64,000 bases of DNA, taken from contig CAWKAR010000039.1 of assembly GCA_963847625.1 (NCBI GenBank), forward strand, positions 64,001 through 128,000. Direction: 5' to 3'. A program made the position numbers and the translations under genes. Of the stretch, positions 20,618 through 55,919 are shown piece after piece; within the stretch, counting starts at the first letter, position 1; every line of letters begins with the position of its first letter. The notes below the pieces were generated by a model. That model did no database searches and was not told the origin of the DNA. It worked only from the letters and a program-made list of their open reading frames with translations. The stretch comes from a candidate division FCPU426 bacterium. Its GTDB lineage: Bacteria > Oederibacteriota > Muellerivitia > Muellerivitales > Muellerivitaceae.

Positions 20618-23053
20618 ATGAAATTACTCAAATTCAAGATCATTTTCTCCACGTTAATTCTGCTTGCTTGGCCTTTGTTTCTGAACGCCCAAACCCAGCC
20701 GGCTACCATTACGATCAACTCGGCTTCAACCATCACCTCATTCGTTCCCATCAGCATTTTTGGAAACAACACGGCCTATTGGACGAATAACGGTGATGAC
20801 ATGTCTGTGCAGCCTTTGGTCCAGGCGGTGGGAAATTATTTCATACGATATCCAGGCGGTTCCTCCTCGGATATTTTCCATTGGAACGGATCGGGAACTT
20901 TTAATTCCAACGGTTATTGGATTCCCAGCGGAACCACTTATGCTCCTGGTCATCAATGTAATCAAACTTACGCGGGAACAACTGCATCCAATGCCGGGGG
21001 TTATTCCAATATAACAGACGGAGATATCTCCACGACCTGGCTTTCTAACGTGGACACGGATTTACCAAACCACCAGTGGGTCCAGCTTTCCGCAGGGATT
21101 CAAGTGAACGCCATTACCATTGTCTGGGGTAACCCTTACGCCACATCATTTCAAATTCAATACTATAACGGCTGGCCTTGGAGCAATAGCGTCTTGGAAA
21201 GTGCATGGTCATCAGTGGTGACTATGACGGGCACCGGGGGAACTCAGGGGGTGACTTTTGCCCCCATTTCCCCTCAATATATCCGCATCCTCATGACTGT
21301 CTCTTCGGGGCCGGTGACGGCCAACTTGGGTTCGGTGACGGTCATCGGCCCCGCTTACGCCATCGCTGAGGCGTCTTTATATAATGGGACGACTTTAGTT
21401 TCCTCGAGCAATACCCAGGTTTGGGTTTCCAGTACAGATCCCGCTTCCAGCAACGGCTGGCAACCTTCCTTCGACTTTGAATCCTTCATGTCCTATATGA
21501 ACGCCTTCGGCACCAACCTGAAAGCTATTCCCATCATCACCGTCAATTTTGGGACCGGAACACCGGCCGAGGCGGCCTCCTGGGTTTATTACGCCAATAA
21601 AGTGGCGCATCCACAATACCCGAACTGGGCCGGCTGCCATTACTGGCAGATCGGCAACGAGGACGAAGGTTTCTGGGAGGCGGGTGGGCCTATTCCCACT
21701 CAGGATTATGTCAGGCGTTATATCGAGTATTACGACGCCATGAAGGCCGTGGATTCGAGCATCATTATCACGGGCCCGGTGGCAGGAGGATTCAATACGC
21801 CATCCAATATGTACGATGGAAACGGTGTGATGCAGGATTTCATCAATATTTTAAAAGTGAAAGGAAAACTTGATCATCTCAACGCCATCGATTTCCATTG
21901 GTATCCCGAGGGAGGCAGCTATACCGATGCCAGCGCCTTGGCCAGCACCTCCTCCTTGGATTCTTATCCGGGGCAATTGAACGGCTGGCTTTCAAACGCG
22001 GGTATTGTCAGTCCATCCGCCGTGCCGGTGATGATGACCGAATACAACGTCGATCCTGGGAATGAAAATTTCCAGGTCCAGTTGGGGGACGGCCTTTGGC
22101 TGGCCGACGCCTTGGGACATTTCATCACGGACTTCGGGAGCCGCGGTTACTGCAACCTTTGGGACACCTTGAATGGGGGAAATAACGACGGGGATTACTA
22201 CATAACCGCTGGTGATTTAGGATACCTGGACGCGGCCTATAACTATGCACCGCGCGCTACCTATTGGGCCATGAAAATGATGACCAACGATTGGGCTATC
22301 CCTGGTGATACCAATGCCCATCAACTGATTACAGCCAACAGCAGTACTGCGTCCCTCGCGGCTTACGCGGACTATCGCCCTGATAGCATCATTTCGTTGG
22401 TGGTGGTCAATAAAGACCCGAGCAACTTTTATAATACATGGGTGACAGGCATCCCTTACACCCCCAACGCCACCGCCGATGAGTGGACCTTCGATTCCAC
22501 CAATTACCAGTGGGTGATCACCGGGTCAACGCCATACCACGCCACGCCGAATACGGCCCCGACTACCCTCACATTAAGCGGGGTAGCCAGCTCATTCCCT
22601 GTCACTTTTGGGCCTTATTCTATAACGGTTTTGCAGATTAACCATCCAGCCACTTCTACGCCTACCTTTACTCCACCCCCCTGTACCGACGGTTCCGGAC
22701 ACACTTGTACTCCCACCAATACCCCCACCGCGACGATCACGCCCACTCCCACGGCGACGGTTACGAATCTCAATGTTCTTTTTCCCAACCCTATTCGGGA
22801 CCAAACACCCCTGAACTTTTATTACCATTTGGATTCCAACAATGACTGGGTGAAAGTCAAAATATTCACGACTTCATTCAGAAAAATTTACGAGCAGGAC
22901 AGCTTGCCGTTTAAACAAGGAACACACCCTTACCAGCTGAATTGGGCCCAATCGGGATTAAACCCAGCCAATGGACTTTATTATGTTGTTTTGGACCGGC
23001 TAAATGGCGGTCATGAGAGCCTCCAGATCATGAAACTTCTCATCTTTCGCTAA
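20618..23053 (+). CDS. Secreted clan GH-A glycoside hydrolase (GH44/GH51/GH39-like) with an inserted F5/8 discoidin domain, PT linker and T9SS-like C-terminal domain
   Basis: Signal peptide, RYPGGSSSD, YWQIGNE (acid/base), VMMTEYN (nucleophile), DGDISTTWLS discoidin segment, TPTxTPT repeats, C-terminal FPNP...NGLYYVVL. Confidence 0.75.
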   Translation: MKLLKFKIIFSTLILLAWPLFLNAQTQPATITINSASTITSFVPISIFGNNTAYWTNNGDDMSVQPLVQAVGNYFIRYPGGSSSDIFHWNGSGTFNSNGYWIPSGTTYAPGHQCNQTYAGTTASNAGGYSNITDGDISTTWLSNVDTDLPNHQWVQLSAGIQVNAITIVWGNPYATSFQIQYYNGWPWSNSVLESAWSSVVTMTGTGGTQGVTFAPISPQYIRILMTVSSGPVTANLGSVTVIGPAYAIAEASLYNGTTLVSSSNTQVWVSSTDPASSNGWQPSFDFESFMSYMNAFGTNLKAIPIITVNFGTGTPAEAASWVYYANKVAHPQYPNWAGCHYWQIGNEDEGFWEAGGPIPTQDYVRRYIEYYDAMKAVDSSIIITGPVAGGFNTPSNMYDGNGVMQDFINILKVKGKLDHLNAIDFHWYPEGGSYTDASALASTSSLDSYPGQLNGWLSNAGIVSPSAVPVMMTEYNVDPGNENFQVQLGDGLWLADALGHFITDFGSRGYCNLWDTLNGGNNDGDYYITAGDLGYLDAAYNYAPRATYWAMKMMTNDWAIPGDTNAHQLITANSSTASLAAYADYRPDSIISLVVVNKDPSNFYNTWVTGIPYTPNATADEWTFDSTNYQWVITGSTPYHATPNTAPTTLTLSGVASSFPVTFGPYSITVLQINHPATSTPTFTPPPCTDGSGHTCTPTNTPTATITPTPTATVTNLNVLFPNPIRDQTPLNFYYHLDSNNDWVKVKIFTTSFRKIYEQDSLPFKQGTHPYQLNWAQSGLNPANGLYYVVLDRLNGGHESLQIMKLLIFR

Positions 23054-45017: not shown

Positions 45018-45058
45018 GTGTAAAATAAATTTACACTTGATCATTAACTTTTTACTAT
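45018..45058 (+). promoter_or_regulatory. TGT-N11-ACA palindrome overlapping a sigma70 promoter of the EBP operon
   Basis: GTGTAAA-ATAAA-TTTACAC (45018-45036) overlaps TTTACA-17 nt-TACTAT (45030-45058). Confidence 0.6.
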
Positions 45059-45105
45059 AAGTTAATTTTTTTAGGCACTGATAGGGGTTCAAGTTGAAAA
45101 AAACC

Positions 45106-45474
45106 ATGTTAAAAAAAGAAGATTGGGGGGGGTTAACCATCGTGGCCCTCTTGGCGGCTTACGTTTTTCCGCCTTATTTCGTCTATCTCATGACAATGGC
45201 GGCCTTGACCGAATTCGCCCACCTCTGGACCACCCGTCTTTCCCGCGTCGACCAGGAAAAATTCATCGCTTTCGAGAAGGAATTCCGAAAGGGGTATCAA
45301 TTAGAAAAGGCCGGTAAACTGAAAGATGCTATTCAGTGGTACCAGAAACTCGAAACACGGTATGCCGACCTTCCTCAGGCGGGAAAACTAGCCACCCTGC
45401 AAATCCGGAAATTAACCCAGAAAAAAGGTGCAAAGAATTTTTTGCCCCCGCGAAACCCCAAGCCACCGGAGTAA
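45106..45474 (+). CDS. Small membrane protein with a TPR-like helix pair
   Basis: Hydrophobic N-terminus; FRKGYQLEKAGKLKDAIQWY; 3 nt upstream of the EBP gene. Start is ATG 45106 or TTG 45094. Confidence 0.6.
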   Translation: MLKKEDWGGLTIVALLAAYVFPPYFVYLMTMAALTEFAHLWTTRLSRVDQEKFIAFEKEFRKGYQLEKAGKLKDAIQWYQKLETRYADLPQAGKLATLQIRKLTQKKGAKNFLPPRNPKPPE

Positions 45475-45477
45475 ATC

Positions 45478-47358
45478 ATGGACCCTATCGCCTGCCGGGA
45501 ATGCGGATTTACCATGGAACCTCAAAACAGGTTTTGCGCCATTTGCGGTGTAGCCCATGAGGAAATCGAAACAGGAACACGGGAAGGGATGGAGGCTTTT
45601 GAACAGGGGGAATACGAGAAGGCCCTTCAACTTTTCAAAATCACCGCCAAAAAACAACCGTTCAGCGTATTTGCCCTTCGGGACGTGGGTCACGCGGCCT
45701 TTCATCTCCAGGATTTCAACCTCGCCCTGGAATATTATGAGAAAGCGCTCCAACTCCATAAAAGCCTCTTGGATGTCCATTTCAACCTGGGGCTCATCCA
45801 TTTGCAACGGGGCCACGTTAACGATGCGGCTTTTTGCTTCTTGGAAACGCTCCATCTCATCCATCCCTTGACCCCCGGGGCTTATTACCTGGGATTATTT
45901 CATAGCTCGGAAAGCCTTACTTTCCAATGCCGGTTGAACCTGGGAAATCTTTTCAAGGAAAGGGGTGAATTGGAAAAGGCTCTAGAGCAATACCGCCTCG
46001 TCGTGGCCCTCAACCCCAAAAACGTTCTAGCGCTTGGAAGTTTGGGCGACTGTCTCATCGCGCTGGAACAATATGACCAAGCCATCGGAACGTATAAAAA
46101 AGCGATCCGTGTCCTTCCGGACGGAGAGGAGAAGCTAAAACTTCAAAACGACCTGGGTGTTTCCTATTTCAAGAAGGGCGACCTCGAAAGGGCGATTAAC
46201 GAATTCAAGAACATCCTCAAGAAGGACCCGGGACACGTAAACGCCGTTTATAACCTGGGACAGCTCTATTACCACGAAGGTTTGACGGGAAGGATGAAAG
46301 AGGATTACGCGGATTTCGTCAAGTCCTCCAAAGACGCAGCCTCCATTCTTTTTTCCATTTCCAAGTCCATGGTTTCAGTGGCCGCATCCGAGAAAGGCCC
46401 GCAGATAGAGGAAACCAATCTCATCGGCAATAGTCTTCCCATGCGTAAAATACAAGAACTGATCAAACGCGCGGCAGCCAGCGACGCCACCGTGTTGATT
46501 TTAGGGGAGAATGGGACAGGGAAGGAACTTGTTGCCCGGGCCATCCATCAGCAATCCGGAAGACACGATAAACCGTTTCTCCCCATCGCTTGCGCCGCTT
46601 TAAGTGAATCCCTCCTGGAAAGCGAACTTTTCGGTCATGAGCAGGGCTCTTTCACCGGGGCCATCGGTCAGAAAATGGGAAAATTCGAGGTAGCCGATAA
46701 AGGGACTGTTTTCCTGGATGAGATCGGCGATATCTCCCTTGCCACCCAGGTCAAACTTCTCCGTGTACTCCAGGAACGGGAATTTCAGCGGGTGGGCGGG
46801 AATGAGACGCTCAAAGTCAATATCCGGGTCATCTGCGCCACCAACCGCGATTTGAAAGAAGCGATACAATCCGGCAAGTTTCGAGAGGATCTTTTCTACC
46901 GGCTGAACGTGATCGTGATTGATATGCCTCCGTTACGGGAAAGGGAAGGAGACTTGATTCTGCTCATCCGGTATTTCCTGGAGCGCATGAGGGTCAAGAA
47001 ACCCAACCGGTTTGAGGGAGTATCCGCCAAGGCTTTGGAGATCATGCAGCGTCACCGCTGGCCGGGGAATGTGCGGGAATTGGAAAACGTGATTGAAAGG
47101 ATCGTGACCCTGAATGACGACGTATTGATTCAACCGGAACATTTACCTTCGGAAATTACCAATTTTGATTCCCGTCTTTCCTTTTTCACCCAAACCTTGC
47201 CGAACGTGGGAATTTTGGAATCGGTGGAAAAAGACATCATTTTAAGGATACTGAAGGAATACCGTTTTAACAAGAAACAGGCGGCCAATAAATTGGGGAT
47301 TAGCCGGCCCACTCTTTATCAAAAAATGCGAAAATATGGGATTGTTGTGAAAAAATGA
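45478..47358 (+). CDS. sigma54-dependent enhancer-binding protein with N-terminal zinc ribbon and TPR sensor region
   Basis: CRECG...CAICG, multiple TPRs, [39 protein letters not shown], Fis-type HTH ([16 protein letters not shown]). Confidence 0.92.
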
Positions 47359-47367
47359 AGAAGAGAG

Positions 47368-47413
47368 TGTAAGATTTTAATACATATTAACTAAATTGTA
47401 AAAATACTTAACA
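47368..47413. promoter_or_regulatory. Two putative upstream activating sites, TGT-N11-ACA
   Basis: TGTAAGATTTTAATACA (47368-47384) and TGTAAAAATACTTAACA (47397-47413), centred about -127 and -98 from the predicted +1. Confidence 0.65.
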
Positions 47414-47476
47414 CTTGAAAGCGATTTATTATTTCAATAATCCTTAATTTTAAAGGTTTTTTTCCTTTATTAGATC

Positions 47477-47492
47477 TGGCACAGACCTTGCT
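47477..47492 (+). promoter_or_regulatory. sigma54 (-24/-12) promoter
   Basis: TGGCAC-AGACC-TTGCT, an exact consensus match. Confidence 0.88.
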
Positions 47493-47502
47493 TTTAAAAG
47501 CA

Positions 47503-47597
47503 ATAGCTGGCTTTAACCGGCTGGCTTTCAAACGAATCAACATTAAAACACTCACCTCCTAAAGAGCCTCGGTTCGACCCAACCGGGGCTTTTTTTT
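47503..47597 (+). ncRNA. Putative sigma54-dependent small RNA with an anti-Shine-Dalgarno motif
   Basis: Lies between the sigma54 promoter and a terminator, with no ATG in the interval. 5' hairpin AGCTGG/CCGGCT, then single-stranded ...CACTCACCTCCT, then terminator AGCCTCGGTT-CGACCC-AACCGGGGCT-T7. Confidence 0.72.
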
Positions 47598-47812
47598 GCC
47601 TAAAATCATAAATTTCCCGGTCATCCAAAATCGGGGAGAGCCTTACCTTGTGTTATATTGCCCGGCAACAGTCCTAGCTCTTAACCCAAAGTTGAAAGTT
47701 CCAATCGTCCTATCAAACTTGTGAAAATCGGACGTATGGTTCATTCCCTTTGCGAAAACTTTAAATTTTTAACTTTTTTGCGTTAAATCCCAATATTCCT
47801 AACGTTTGGAGG

Positions 47813-48916
47813 TTGTCCCTGAACGCCTATTGGATCGTCTTTCTTACCGCTTTCGTCTTGGCTATAGGATTGACCCCCCTATTTCGAAAGATCGCCCTGA
47901 GGTCCCAGTTTTTGGATACCCCCTTGGGACAGCTCAAAAAACACACAGCGCCGGTTCCCTATTTAGGGGGGCTGGCAGTTTATTTCTCCTTTTTGCTGGC
48001 CATCCTGGGGGCCCTGGTTCTCGCTCCGCCTCCTGACGGATCCCGCATCCTGGCTCTCCTGGCGGGGGGAACGGTCATGGCCTTGATGGGTTTAGTGGAC
48101 GACCTTTTTTCCCTATCCCCCGCTGTCAAATTCCTTTTTGAATTTCTGGCTGCCAGCCTACTGGTCCTTTTCGGCGTCAAACTGGAATTTCTGCCAAGTC
48201 ATCCCATCTTGGGTTATGCGCTGACCCTTATCTGGATCGTGGCGGTCACCAATGCTGTCAATTTAATCGATATCATGGACGGCTTGGCAGGGGGAATCTC
48301 CTTCATTGCTTGCGCGGGATTCGTTTTCGTGCCGTTCCTTGGCGTGCAAAGCTATGTCCGCCTGACGGCCGCCGCACTGGGCGGAAGCGTCCTAGGTTTC
48401 TTGCCGTATAACTTCCAGCCCGCGCGCATATATATGGGAGACTCGGGAGCCCTATTTCTGGGATTCATGCTCGCTGGGATCGCACTAGGGCACGGGTATA
48501 CCCAAGTGAACGTGGTCGCCCTTTGCGGGCCGCTCCTTGTTCTGGGCATACCCCTTTACGACACCGCCCTGGTCATGGCGCTTCGTTTTTTGAAGGGGCG
48601 TTCGATGTTTAGGGGCTCCAACGACCATTTGGCCCTGCGTTTAAGACGCTTGGGCTTAACCGTCAAGCAAACGGTCCTAAGCCTTTGGACTCTCTCCCTT
48701 TTACTGGCGTGCGGAGCCGCCTTGTTGGTCCGCTTTTCCGAGAAAAGGGCCCTGGCCCTCATGGTTCTATTCTTCTTCCTGACTTTGGTTTTCACTTTTT
48801 TCATTTCCAGCGTGCCTGTGGATGAGGGGTTGAAGAAAATCCGGGAAAACCCTTTCCGAGTGTGGCTGGAACCATCCCTGGTTGGAAAATCCGCCAAACC
48901 CAGGAAAAAGAAGTGA
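47813..48916 (+). CDS. Undecaprenyl-phosphate GlcNAc-1-phosphate transferase (WecA/TagO, MraY family)
   Basis: PYLGGLA, GLVDD, NAVNLIDIMDGLA, YMGDSGA; multiple transmembrane segments. Confidence 0.88.
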   Translation: MSLNAYWIVFLTAFVLAIGLTPLFRKIALRSQFLDTPLGQLKKHTAPVPYLGGLAVYFSFLLAILGALVLAPPPDGSRILALLAGGTVMALMGLVDDLFSLSPAVKFLFEFLAASLLVLFGVKLEFLPSHPILGYALTLIWIVAVTNAVNLIDIMDGLAGGISFIACAGFVFVPFLGVQSYVRLTAAALGGSVLGFLPYNFQPARIYMGDSGALFLGFMLAGIALGHGYTQVNVVALCGPLLVLGIPLYDTALVMALRFLKGRSMFRGSNDHLALRLRRLGLTVKQTVLSLWTLSLLLACGAALLVRFSEKRALALMVLFFFLTLVFTFFISSVPVDEGLKKIRENPFRVWLEPSLVGKSAKPRKKK

Positions 48917-54622: not shown

Positions 54623-54697
54623 TGGGGCGTCGACAAGTGGTAAGTCACCAGCCTTTGGAGCTGGCATTCGTAGGTTCGAATCCTACCGCCCCAGCCA
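54623..54697 (+). tRNA. tRNA-Gln (anticodon TTG)
   Basis: Acceptor TGGGGCG/CGCCCCA, anticodon arm CCAGC-CTTTGGA-GCTGG, T-loop GGTTCGAATCC, encoded CCA. Confidence 0.97.
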
Positions 54698-55919
54698 TTT
54701 TTTTGCCCGTATTTATTGGGCTTTGCAACCAGATAAACCTTCTATCTACCTTTTCATCTACCTTTTCAACCTGGGTTTTGATTTCGGGATAAGCTTTTTC
54801 CATTTTCTGCAATAAATCTTTTGGCGCATTTACTCCGTATCCTTCCAAGGTGCTCACGTTCTTATGACCCGTTAGGCTCATGATGTCATAAGGCGATAAA
54901 CCAGCCGCCCTCATGTTTGAAACGAATGAATGCCGGAAAGTATGGGGCCGGACCTTTTTGGTTAATCCCGCTTTGGTCGCAAGATTTACGAATAATTGTT
55001 TTCCAGGTTGGTCTATCGGTCTGCCCTCTTCGTCACATAGTAAAAAAACCTTATGCTTTTCTTCCCTGGAATACCAATGGCGATAAGTGGGGCGATGGGT
55101 TTTAAGCTTTTCTAATATTGGGAGTAATGGCCCAACGATGGGCAATATTCGGTAATCGCTCGTTTTTTCCGCCCTTACCGTGATTTCCCGGCGGGCTAGA
55201 TCGGCGTCAGCATAACGCAACCCGGCTAATTCACCTTGGCGTATCCCAAGATACAAAAGCAGGTGGGTTACAACCTGGGCATAGGGGCTTTCCTCTGAAG
55301 CTTTTAAGATGGCCGTTTGTTCCTCTTGGTTAAGGTAATTCTTCGGCTTTTTCTCAACCTTGGGGAAGTAGTCCTTAAGAAGTTGCTGGGGTGTCTTAAA
55401 GGGGTGGCTTTTTAATATCTGATTCTTAACCGCCCAACCGCAAAGGCTTGAAAGTTGGGCAACCTCATTGGAAATGGTCTTTATTCCAACAGGAGTGCCC
55501 CTATAAGTGATTTCTTTGCGCCGGGTGGTAATGTACCCTTCGATTTTAGCGGGTGTCAATTCATGTAGTTTTAGATCACCCAAGAAGCGGCAAGTATGGC
55601 TTAAAGCAATGCGGTAAGGTTTCAGGCCCTTGGATGAATTTAGTTTTATGCCCTCTACTGCACCAAAATATTGGGGGACCGCTTCAGTAAGGGTGGGAAT
55701 AATCTTAATGTCTAAACGTTCTTGGGTAATTTCTCTTACTTTTTCACGGCCTAAATTGTCGGAAACCCGCTTAAATACCTGCTTGGCTTCCCTTGTTGTG
55801 GGAAATGTCCCTAAATATAACCATTGCCGTGAACGTTTGCCCTTATTCATGGTTGAAGTGACGGCGAAAGCCTTAATACCGCCGTTTCTCTTGTCAGGCT
55901 TCGTTTGTAGAGTAGCCAT
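54645..55919 (-). CDS. Tyrosine integrase whose 3' end overlaps tRNA-Gln
   Basis: LGIRQGEL, PHTFRHSF, LTGH...TLEGY. Stop TGA at 54645-54647 lies inside the tRNA. Confidence 0.92.
   Translation of the reverse strand: MATLQTKPDKRNGGIKAFAVTSTMNKGKRSRQWLYLGTFPTTREAKQVFKRVSDNLGREKVREITQERLDIKIIPTLTEAVPQYFGAVEGIKLNSSKGLKPYRIALSHTCRFLGDLKLHELTPAKIEGYITTRRKEITYRGTPVGIKTISNEVAQLSSLCGWAVKNQILKSHPFKTPQQLLKDYFPKVEKKPKNYLNQEEQTAILKASEESPYAQVVTHLLLYLGIRQGELAGLRYADADLARREITVRAEKTSDYRILPIVGPLLPILEKLKTHRPTYRHWYSREEKHKVFLLCDEEGRPIDQPGKQLFVNLATKAGLTKKVRPHTFRHSFVSNMRAAGLSPYDIMSLTGHKNVSTLEGYGVNAPKDLLQKMEKAYPEIKTQVEKVDEKVDRRFIWLQSPINTGKKMAGAVGFEPTNASSKGW
54744..54767 (+). repeat. Tandem arm-type integrase sites (left)
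   Basis: ATCTACCTTTTC x2 with degenerate flanking copies. Confidence 0.7.

Follow-up and report, generated by a model that had tools for sequence, protein, structure and literature searches.

Small RNAs that cover the Shine-Dalgarno (SD) sequence or the AUG of an mRNA block translation initiation, which is an established mechanism of sRNA action. In the textbook scheme, sigma-54 activators switch pilin genes on. The luxO gene is adjacent to the Qrr1 gene, and the Qrr sRNAs are Hfq-dependent. In the LuxO/Qrr1 system of Vibrionaceae, a sigma-54 activator with phosphorelay input drives base-pairing sRNAs directed at quorum-sensing targets, as far as the consulted part of the literature describes it. 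The only direct sRNA repressor of pilin translation found in our literature searches is Arp (Acinetobacter repressor of pilin) of A. baumannii, which represses translation of the major pilin according to the available part of a 2025 preprint (PMC12338739). The same part describes Arp as an RNA of about 72 nt with two hairpins, restricted to Acinetobacter and linked to BfmR, which pairs over the SD and first codons of the pilin mRNA; its C-rich terminator loop joins the pairing, the CCCC of the loop meeting the SD as part of a single long duplex in which both hairpins are opened (PMC12338739). In Myxococcus xanthus, the consulted sections of PMC5568312 place the Pxr sRNA directly downstream of the sigma-54 activator gene nla19, behind a sigma-54 promoter; Nla19 is a response regulator, and Pxr has three stem-loops, is processed and gates development. 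LhrC of Listeria monocytogenes, in the portion of PMC4132741 consulted, possesses two stem-loops, a single-stranded stretch and three C-rich sites including the terminator loop, pairs into the coding region via its 5' stem, does not need Hfq and represses a surface protein. It occurs in five copies under a two-component regulator, and its sites are redundant UCCC motifs directed at one SD (PMC4132741). Finally, RNAIII of Staphylococcus aureus combines on coa an SD-masking duplex with a separate loop-loop contact in the coding region, and is long and multifunctional in the excerpted account (PMC2837412).

The locus described in this study lies in the window, by which we mean the whole analysed stretch of 64,000 nucleotides, and its central element at 47503-47597 is with high confidence a real, conserved sRNA gene. 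Literature searches, covering material other than subscription papers, figures and supplements, returned no description of this RNA, which apparently represents a case independent of Arp. By analogy, its mode of action would be like that of Arp, its wiring resembles nla19-pxr, and its multi-site pairing recalls LhrC and RNAIII-coa. It shares with Arp the two hairpins and the pairing over SD and first codons of a pilin mRNA, here predicted and co-varying, and its candidate GACCC loop would join the pairing as the C-rich loop does in the described part of the Arp system (PMC12338739). In contrast, this RNA is about 95 nt long, its loop (C/U)GACCC would pair 30-55 nt upstream, and the SD is covered by a tract of the open linker. 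It further differs by a sigma-54 promoter with an adjacent enhancer-binding protein, by several paralogous pilins as predicted targets and by a genome in which Hfq was not found. Unlike the response regulator Nla19, the activator here has CxxC motifs and TPR repeats and gave no receiver match, and unlike Pxr the RNA has two hairpins, with no Rfam match between the two. LhrC would be matched in the two stem-loops, the single-stranded stretch and the Hfq-free pairing into coding sequence, whereas here three different sequences of a single-copy RNA with a sigma-54 activator would bind at three places, colinear with the mRNA. The separate loop contact, if compared with RNAIII-coa, would fall in the upstream leader and be made by a 95-nt RNA. 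Likewise, the RNA has no Rfam match that would connect it to Qrr1. Where membership was tested, it belonged to none of Arp, Pxr, LhrC and RNAIII-coa. The wiring would be reversed relative to the textbook scheme, with an activator that switches pilin off through an RNA; the pilin leaders examined carry mostly sigma-70-type boxes (by eye). The elements of the RNA are as follows.

47503-47597, plus strand: small RNA gene with predicted ends (fold, alignment, covariance model)
47505-47526, plus strand: 5' hairpin, read earlier as a direct repeat (fold; changes on both sides in 8 of 10 pairs of alignment A1)
47524-47539, plus strand: seed 1, GCUUUCAAACGAAUCA, a 16-nt perfect complement to the pilin start codon and codons 2-6
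47551-47560, plus strand: seed 2, the anti-SD tract CUCACCUCCU, a copy of the 16S tail that pairs with the pilin SD in predicted duplexes
47561-47597, plus strand: intrinsic terminator hairpin with U8 tail (fold; 91.8% of A1 cells paired)
47576-47580, plus strand: terminator loop GACCC, invariant, which may pair with GGGUC as a third site (alignment, complement counts)

In the fold of the 95-nt RNA, a 34-nt open linker joins the 5' hairpin to a terminator that ends in eight U, at a minimum free energy of -29.2 kcal/mol (z -4.4, reached by 0 of 200 shuffles). The original prediction of an sRNA was borne out, as the element is non-coding, structured, ended by an intrinsic terminator and preceded by a conserved sigma-54 promoter. 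The direct repeat GCTGGCTTT noted in its 5' part is present (47506-47514 and 47520-47528), but the two copies pair with each other via G-U pairs as the 5' hairpin, and both are retained in just 2 of 31 homologues (by eye, alignment). Across both hairpins, 87.1% of alignment cells are paired against 79.8% in shuffles (0 of 500 as high) and 10 of 19 pairs show changes on both sides in alignment A1, counts that are inflated by relatedness and derive from a structure written by hand from these same sequences. A simple terminator scan of the window did not list the terminator at 47561-47597. A search of Rfam 15, the check proposed earlier, which has families such as Pxr, Qrr, Spot 42 and PsrR1, gave no family at gathering score and 12 weak matches, the best at 19.2 bits against a cut-off of 41. 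No paralogue was detected within this genome by blastn or covariance model; the short blastn matches that the terminator has in relatives fall in different terminators and in another conserved element, and were rejected as paralogues. As for RNA chaperones, the suggested check for hfq found no Hfq/LSM match (PF17209, PF01423) in a profile search of this 94%-complete genome, and CsrA and ProQ were not found in it either; two matches to the KhpA/B family are present. A protein sponge of the CsrB/RsmY type was also rejected, as the RNA lacks GGA and CsrA was not found in the genome.

Promoter and RNA were found together in 31 of 33 loci examined, and both misses come from genomes with the RNA on another contig. 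The covariance model detects one strong copy in each of 30 of 31 family genomes and in the one sister-family genome (1/1); the family genome without a match is 63% complete. In 67 other genomes of the phylum it gave no strong match and two weak ones (E 0.004 and 0.0095). Since the model-positive genomes are those from which the model was built, the informative part is the blank outside. Conservation extends jointly to the promoter, the tandem palindromes, both hairpins and the U-tail. The RNA of genomes G021 and G002 lies about 1 kb away from the activator gene, with other DNA in between, and still has its promoter. Insertions directly after the activator stop codon in G021, G002 and G019 (L006, L008, L011) suggest an insertion hot spot. 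The regulatory elements around the RNA are listed below.

45019-45035, no strand: third copy of the TGTAA-N7-TTACA palindrome, perfect (0 mismatches), before the membrane-protein/activator gene pair
45094-45474, plus strand: 126-aa ORF with hydrophobic N-terminus, directly upstream of the activator gene (ORF list)
45478-47358, plus strand: gene of a sigma-54 enhancer-binding protein (PF00158 E 9e-72, PF02954, TPR families)
47368-47384, no strand: enhancer-like palindrome 1, TGTAAGATTTTAATACA (motif scan)
47397-47413, no strand: enhancer-like palindrome 2, TGTAAAAATACTTAACA, 29 bp from palindrome 1
47477-47491, plus strand: sigma-54 -24/-12 promoter TGGCAC-N5-TTGC, predicting +1 at about 47503
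47651-47659, plus strand: extended -10-like motif, TGTTATATT, for the downstream wecA-like gene, which it sets apart from the RNA (loose pattern)

Exact matches to TGGCAC-N5-TTGC number one in the window and eight in the genome, in which rpoN is present, and a sigma-54-type promoter precedes the RNA in all 31 homologues. Both upstream palindromes are of the 17-bp TGTAA-N7-TTACA type, and 30 of 31 homologues have at least two palindromes before the promoter, where shuffles give a mean of 1.9 (maximum 6). No other tandem pair in this genome has a sigma-54 promoter behind it, and the window contains five matches at up to one mismatch where 0.88 are expected. The protein encoded next to them has two N-terminal CxxC motifs, TPR repeats, an AAA+ domain (loop GSFTGA) and a Fis-type HTH, with no match to a receiver domain in the domain search; full-length orthologues occur throughout the family and beyond. 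This neighbouring TPR-type activator likely switches the RNA on, its binding at the palindromes being deduced from synteny and the palindromes. A third palindrome before the activator gene pair is what would be expected if the activator binds and controls itself, and the copy at 45019-45035 is likely its autoregulation site; in 10 of 31 family genomes the activator is preceded, at a distance of 450-580 bp, by a perfect palindrome (positions matched by eye). The 126-aa ORF between them has no Pfam or NCBIfam match, while its Atlas neighbours, under 0.9, are TPR-like and give a lead only. This small, membrane-anchored product is a possible sensor partner of the activator.

Outside the RNA-bearing clade, nine of ten outgroup loci show the orthologous activator followed by a conserved ORF of about 60 aa, and the tenth ends at a contig edge. 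The ORF has a sigma-54-like promoter upstream, which matches the strict pattern in six outgroup loci. Its product carries the motif GHxGxG ... KKG and stands in the place of the RNA at loci L162-L170 of the outgroup families; it has no Pfam or NCBIfam family, and Atlas neighbours are under 0.9. A nine-sequence profile did not find it in this genome, and a single query did not find it in 30 of 31 family genomes, with one weak partial match (E 0.004). Since several separate outgroup families share the protein, it is simpler to suppose that the RNA replaced it at this promoter in the present order, but on a tree that is unrooted and has long branches this direction is tentative.

The pilin mRNA is probably the main target of the RNA and would be repressed by pairing, as judged from sequence complementarity and its co-variation. 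Seed 1 is perfectly complementary over 16 nt to the pilin gene at G000:C57:93141-93596 on the minus strand, G000 being this genome. When the whole RNA was co-folded with 3088 start regions, a list to which two pilin starts were added by hand, pilins ranked 2, 3 and 6 (z -6.2, -4.7 and -4.4), and the remaining two of the five pilins of this genome ranked 333 and 471. Pilin starts also came near the top in an all-gene scan of 3167 genes from a home-made gene caller, covering 72% of the genome. The predicted duplex places seed 1 on the start codon plus codons 2-6 and pairs the SD with the anti-SD tract, leaving 12 nt of linker, AAAACAC among them, looped out. AAAACAC had been proposed to give specificity, yet no other segment of the linker varies as much (from 0 to about 13 nt). 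Specificity would come from the seed at 47524-47539, farther 5', which fits and co-varies with pilin starts. Several candidates were rejected. The longest perfect complement in the genome, 17 nt at 21982-21998 of the window, lies on the strand opposite an 811-aa gene, so that the mRNA has the same sense as the RNA, and was taken as chance. Judged from the translations, the first rank and several further high-scoring rows seem to be wrong starts or shadows on the strand opposite Thr-Pro-repeat genes. A second target, rpsP, is the best non-pilin with a real start (rank 5), and fails the cross-genome test. The five major-pilin paralogues of this genome are dispersed on contigs C57, C63, C39 (two) and C49 and share 73-97% identity with the C57 copy. 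Genes of the PilT and MshEN families also occur. Many relatives have one pilin copy downstream of a pilC-like gene, where it is equipped with a TTGACA/-10 promoter and a 5' hairpin of its own (by eye).

The evidence carrying this assignment is the co-variation of seed and pilin start across genomes. Pilin starts were compared among the matches listed for 30 loci and 80 further stretches, with the outgroup represented in part. With these pilins, the RNA and pilin of the same genome pair at -18.6 kcal/mol on average across 30 genomes against -15.4 kcal/mol for mixed pairs, a difference attained in 0 of 100,000 permutations, and the RNA pairs with the listed pilins of 17 outgroup genomes at -12.3 kcal/mol. 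As a control, rpsP shows no own-pair advantage (18,045 of 20,000 permutations), whereas the listed pilins of the same genomes give 0 of 20,000. A position table was made for 26 genomes, leaving out five. At mRNA position +12 the codon is UUG or its synonym UUA, and the listed pilins fit the RNA in all 21 of the 21 untied genomes, with six or more changes along the activator tree; rpsP shares the Arg-Leu-Lys codons, and its equivalent position fits in 4 of 14 (by eye). Since the rpsP control lacks the pattern, neither codon bias nor kinship is enough on its own to produce it. Position +4, in a codon for Ile, Val or Phe, agrees in 24 of 24 untied genomes among the matches listed; of the four changes at this position on the activator tree, the one in G023 goes unmatched. 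Independent pairs on well-supported branches number just two per seed position, both concordant, which is too few for a test.

Single genomes illustrate the matching. The pilins of G001 start with AUG UUU CGU (Phe) and its seed is altered to match over 17 nt, while those of G004 and G020 start with AUG GUU CGU (Val) and meet a U-to-C change in the seed. The G012 pilin start AUG GUU CGG AUG has an 11-nt match to the divergent seed of that genome, and the G003 pilin uses UUA where the seed reads UUUUAAAC. Departures also occur: an A-C mismatch is found at mRNA +7 in 4 of 26 genomes, the G023 seed departs at +3/+4, the only pilins recovered from G008 and G015 are weakly bound (-4.7 and -6.4), and no full pilin was recovered from G005. 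Co-evolution of an sRNA with its target is recorded here with unusual clarity, in a synonymous codon as well as in amino-acid changes of the pilin leader peptide.

A third contact is suggested by the terminator loop. GACCC is invariant in 31 of 31 homologues, which is unusual for a terminator, and UGACCC occurs in both hairpin loops of G012 and G008. Its complement GGGUC is the most enriched 5-mer of pilin leaders among the matches listed: it is carried by 32 of the 58 class-I leaders and by 15 of the remaining 31, compared with 97 of 2632 genes in this genome. By genome, it occurs in 49 of 93 listed pilin leaders of the clade (26 of 31 genomes) and in 0 of 19 from 17 outgroup genomes. It lies mostly 32-57 nt before the AUG, colinear with the other two sites. 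We lean towards a contact between the GACCC loop and GGGUC in the pilin leader. The strongest competing explanation accepts that seeds 1 and 2 pair with the pilin mRNA and takes GGGUC as a DNA element or a protein-binding element, its complementarity to the loop having some other origin; it bears on this contact alone and is compatible with the rest of the best explanation. We consider it unlikely, though ahead of the other alternatives. GGGUC stands at about +1, 6-7 nt behind a recognisable -10 box, in 11 of 33 leaders, and is predicted more than 60% unpaired in just 14 of 33, which keeps a promoter-linked role in consideration. The co-variation is also partial: the base adjoining GGGUC at 53 sites among the matches listed gives U:A 21, U:G 5, C:G 13, C:A 8 and other 6 (Fisher p 0.006 with kinship ignored), and independent pairs (0.9 same, 0.5 opposite, 2.6 unchanged) lend no support. 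In this genome just one of the five pilins has GGGUC, and the best-matched ones lack it. On the other side, the motif is strictly on the sense strand (47 against 0 of 89 listed leaders) and confined among the matches listed to the RNA-bearing clade; the remaining 22 leaders have it 15-33 nt away from the -10 box, frequently within the loop of a hairpin. Nor is the promoter-GGGUC-SD pattern common genome-wide, with 15 rows against 12 control matches in five genomes, seven of the rows being pilin leaders.

In the mechanism that we propose, the activator would bind the TGTAA-N7-TTACA pair and open the promoter, with the signal presumably read by its CxxC/TPR part. Seed 1 would cover the start codon together with codons 2-6, the anti-SD tract would pair with the SD, and the spacer would be looped out; co-variation argues strongly for this step, by which the 30S subunit would be kept from loading on the pilin mRNA. 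Less firmly, the GACCC loop and GGGUC may form a third contact that would nucleate binding without Hfq. Pilin output and piliation would then fall, as known sRNA biology suggests. The complete reading is offered tentatively: a three-point clamp in which GACCC docks on a GGGUC that evolved order-wide for the RNA, which then zips the SD and six codons without Hfq, with the pilin leader peptide MIRLKA frozen in the seed and the output of the activator swapped from a protein to an RNA. If the loop contact holds, it shows target finding by a short RNA in a lineage without Hfq.

According to the original prediction, the anti-SD tract could repress many mRNAs with strong ribosome-binding sites; pilin would then be one target among many. 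The tract itself was confirmed, as TCACCTCCT at 47552-47560 equals the 3' tail of the genome's own 16S rRNA gene (…GGCTGGATCACCTCCTTT, contig C13) and is exposed, being unpaired in the MFE and centroid folds with a high unpaired probability; in G004 a single-sequence fold buries it. The occurrence of TCACCTCCT alone is within chance, with one copy in the window against 0.39 expected (reached by 33 of 100 shuffles) and 31 in the genome, and the tract is considered real because it is conserved across homologues, not because the 9-mer is rare. The full 9-mer is found in just 14 of 31 homologues, TCACCTCC in 21, CCTCC in 27, and CTC is invariant (alignment A1, by eye). Several non-pilin genes with strong SDs reach -16 to -18 kcal/mol (ranks 7-10), as broad repression would have it. 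Against it, the 9-mer is altered to fit pilin leaders in G017, G031, G023 and G027, with the RNAs of G017 and G031 matching the SD and spacer of their own pilins, and rpsP, the sole non-pilin gene put to the cross-genome test, does not pass it. Broad repression is improbable, although secondary targets may exist; the best target is specific, namely type IV pilin mRNAs, and the tract is likely one among three pairing sites of the RNA.

Two further alternatives are very improbable. One keeps the pairing with pilin mRNA and has the RNA stabilise or activate it: some pilin leaders are predicted to fold over their own SD, and pairing at GGGUC close to the 5' end could protect the transcript from degradation. 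Against this stands the position of two of the three sites, on the SD and the AUG themselves, where pairing would block initiation. The other lets the tract serve the downstream gene, as a leader or as CT-rich insulation of its SD. That gene has a GGAGG site (47808-47812), and CT-rich insulation at sigma-54 promoters has been described, acting within 25 bp of the SD in the consulted part of that report (bioRxiv 10.1101/086108). The tract is about 250 nt from this SD and behind a strong terminator, and an extended -10-like motif, which argues against a leader role, follows within 120 nt of the terminator in 25 of 31 loci (loose pattern, without shuffle control); seed 1 and its co-variation with distant pilin genes would be left unexplained. 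The wecA-like gene probably starts with CTG (47819), 6 nt behind the GGAGG (window 47808-47821), and CTG, TTG or ATG stands at this start in relatives (by eye). The chance that the motif is instead the ribosome-binding site of a translated minus-strand peptide (47391-47543) is negligible: an SD, an ATG and 50 open codons are present here, but the 50-aa ORF is not conserved, the frame in the other 30 homologues having 1-62 codons, shifting or lacking a start, and the peptide start MLIRLKA mirrors the pilin start MIRLKA because the RNA is antisense to it.

A second element of about 80 nt, very highly conserved, was observed behind a small ORF in at least 13 family genomes (L070:845-921 in G024:C55; also L059, L062-L064, L066-L069, L071, L073, L074 and L076). 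Two hairpins, the second of them G4-AU-C7, precede a terminator, and the loop region of this terminator could offer an alternative partner for the G-run; about 60 bases are nearly invariant in eight aligned copies. No Rfam match was found in four loci, and the element is a candidate 3' UTR sRNA or switch; in this genome the small ORF (C28) is followed by a plain terminator only. Elsewhere in the window, the end of a minus-strand, 424-aa integrase-like ORF overlaps a tRNA gene at 54623-54694 (by eye), and 54623-55919 is likely the integration site of a mobile element. Other intergenic sigma-54 promoters lie at G000:C57:47374 (minus strand) before an rpoD-like gene and at C5:5508 (minus strand) before an anti-sigma-antagonist-like gene, both genes named by eye.
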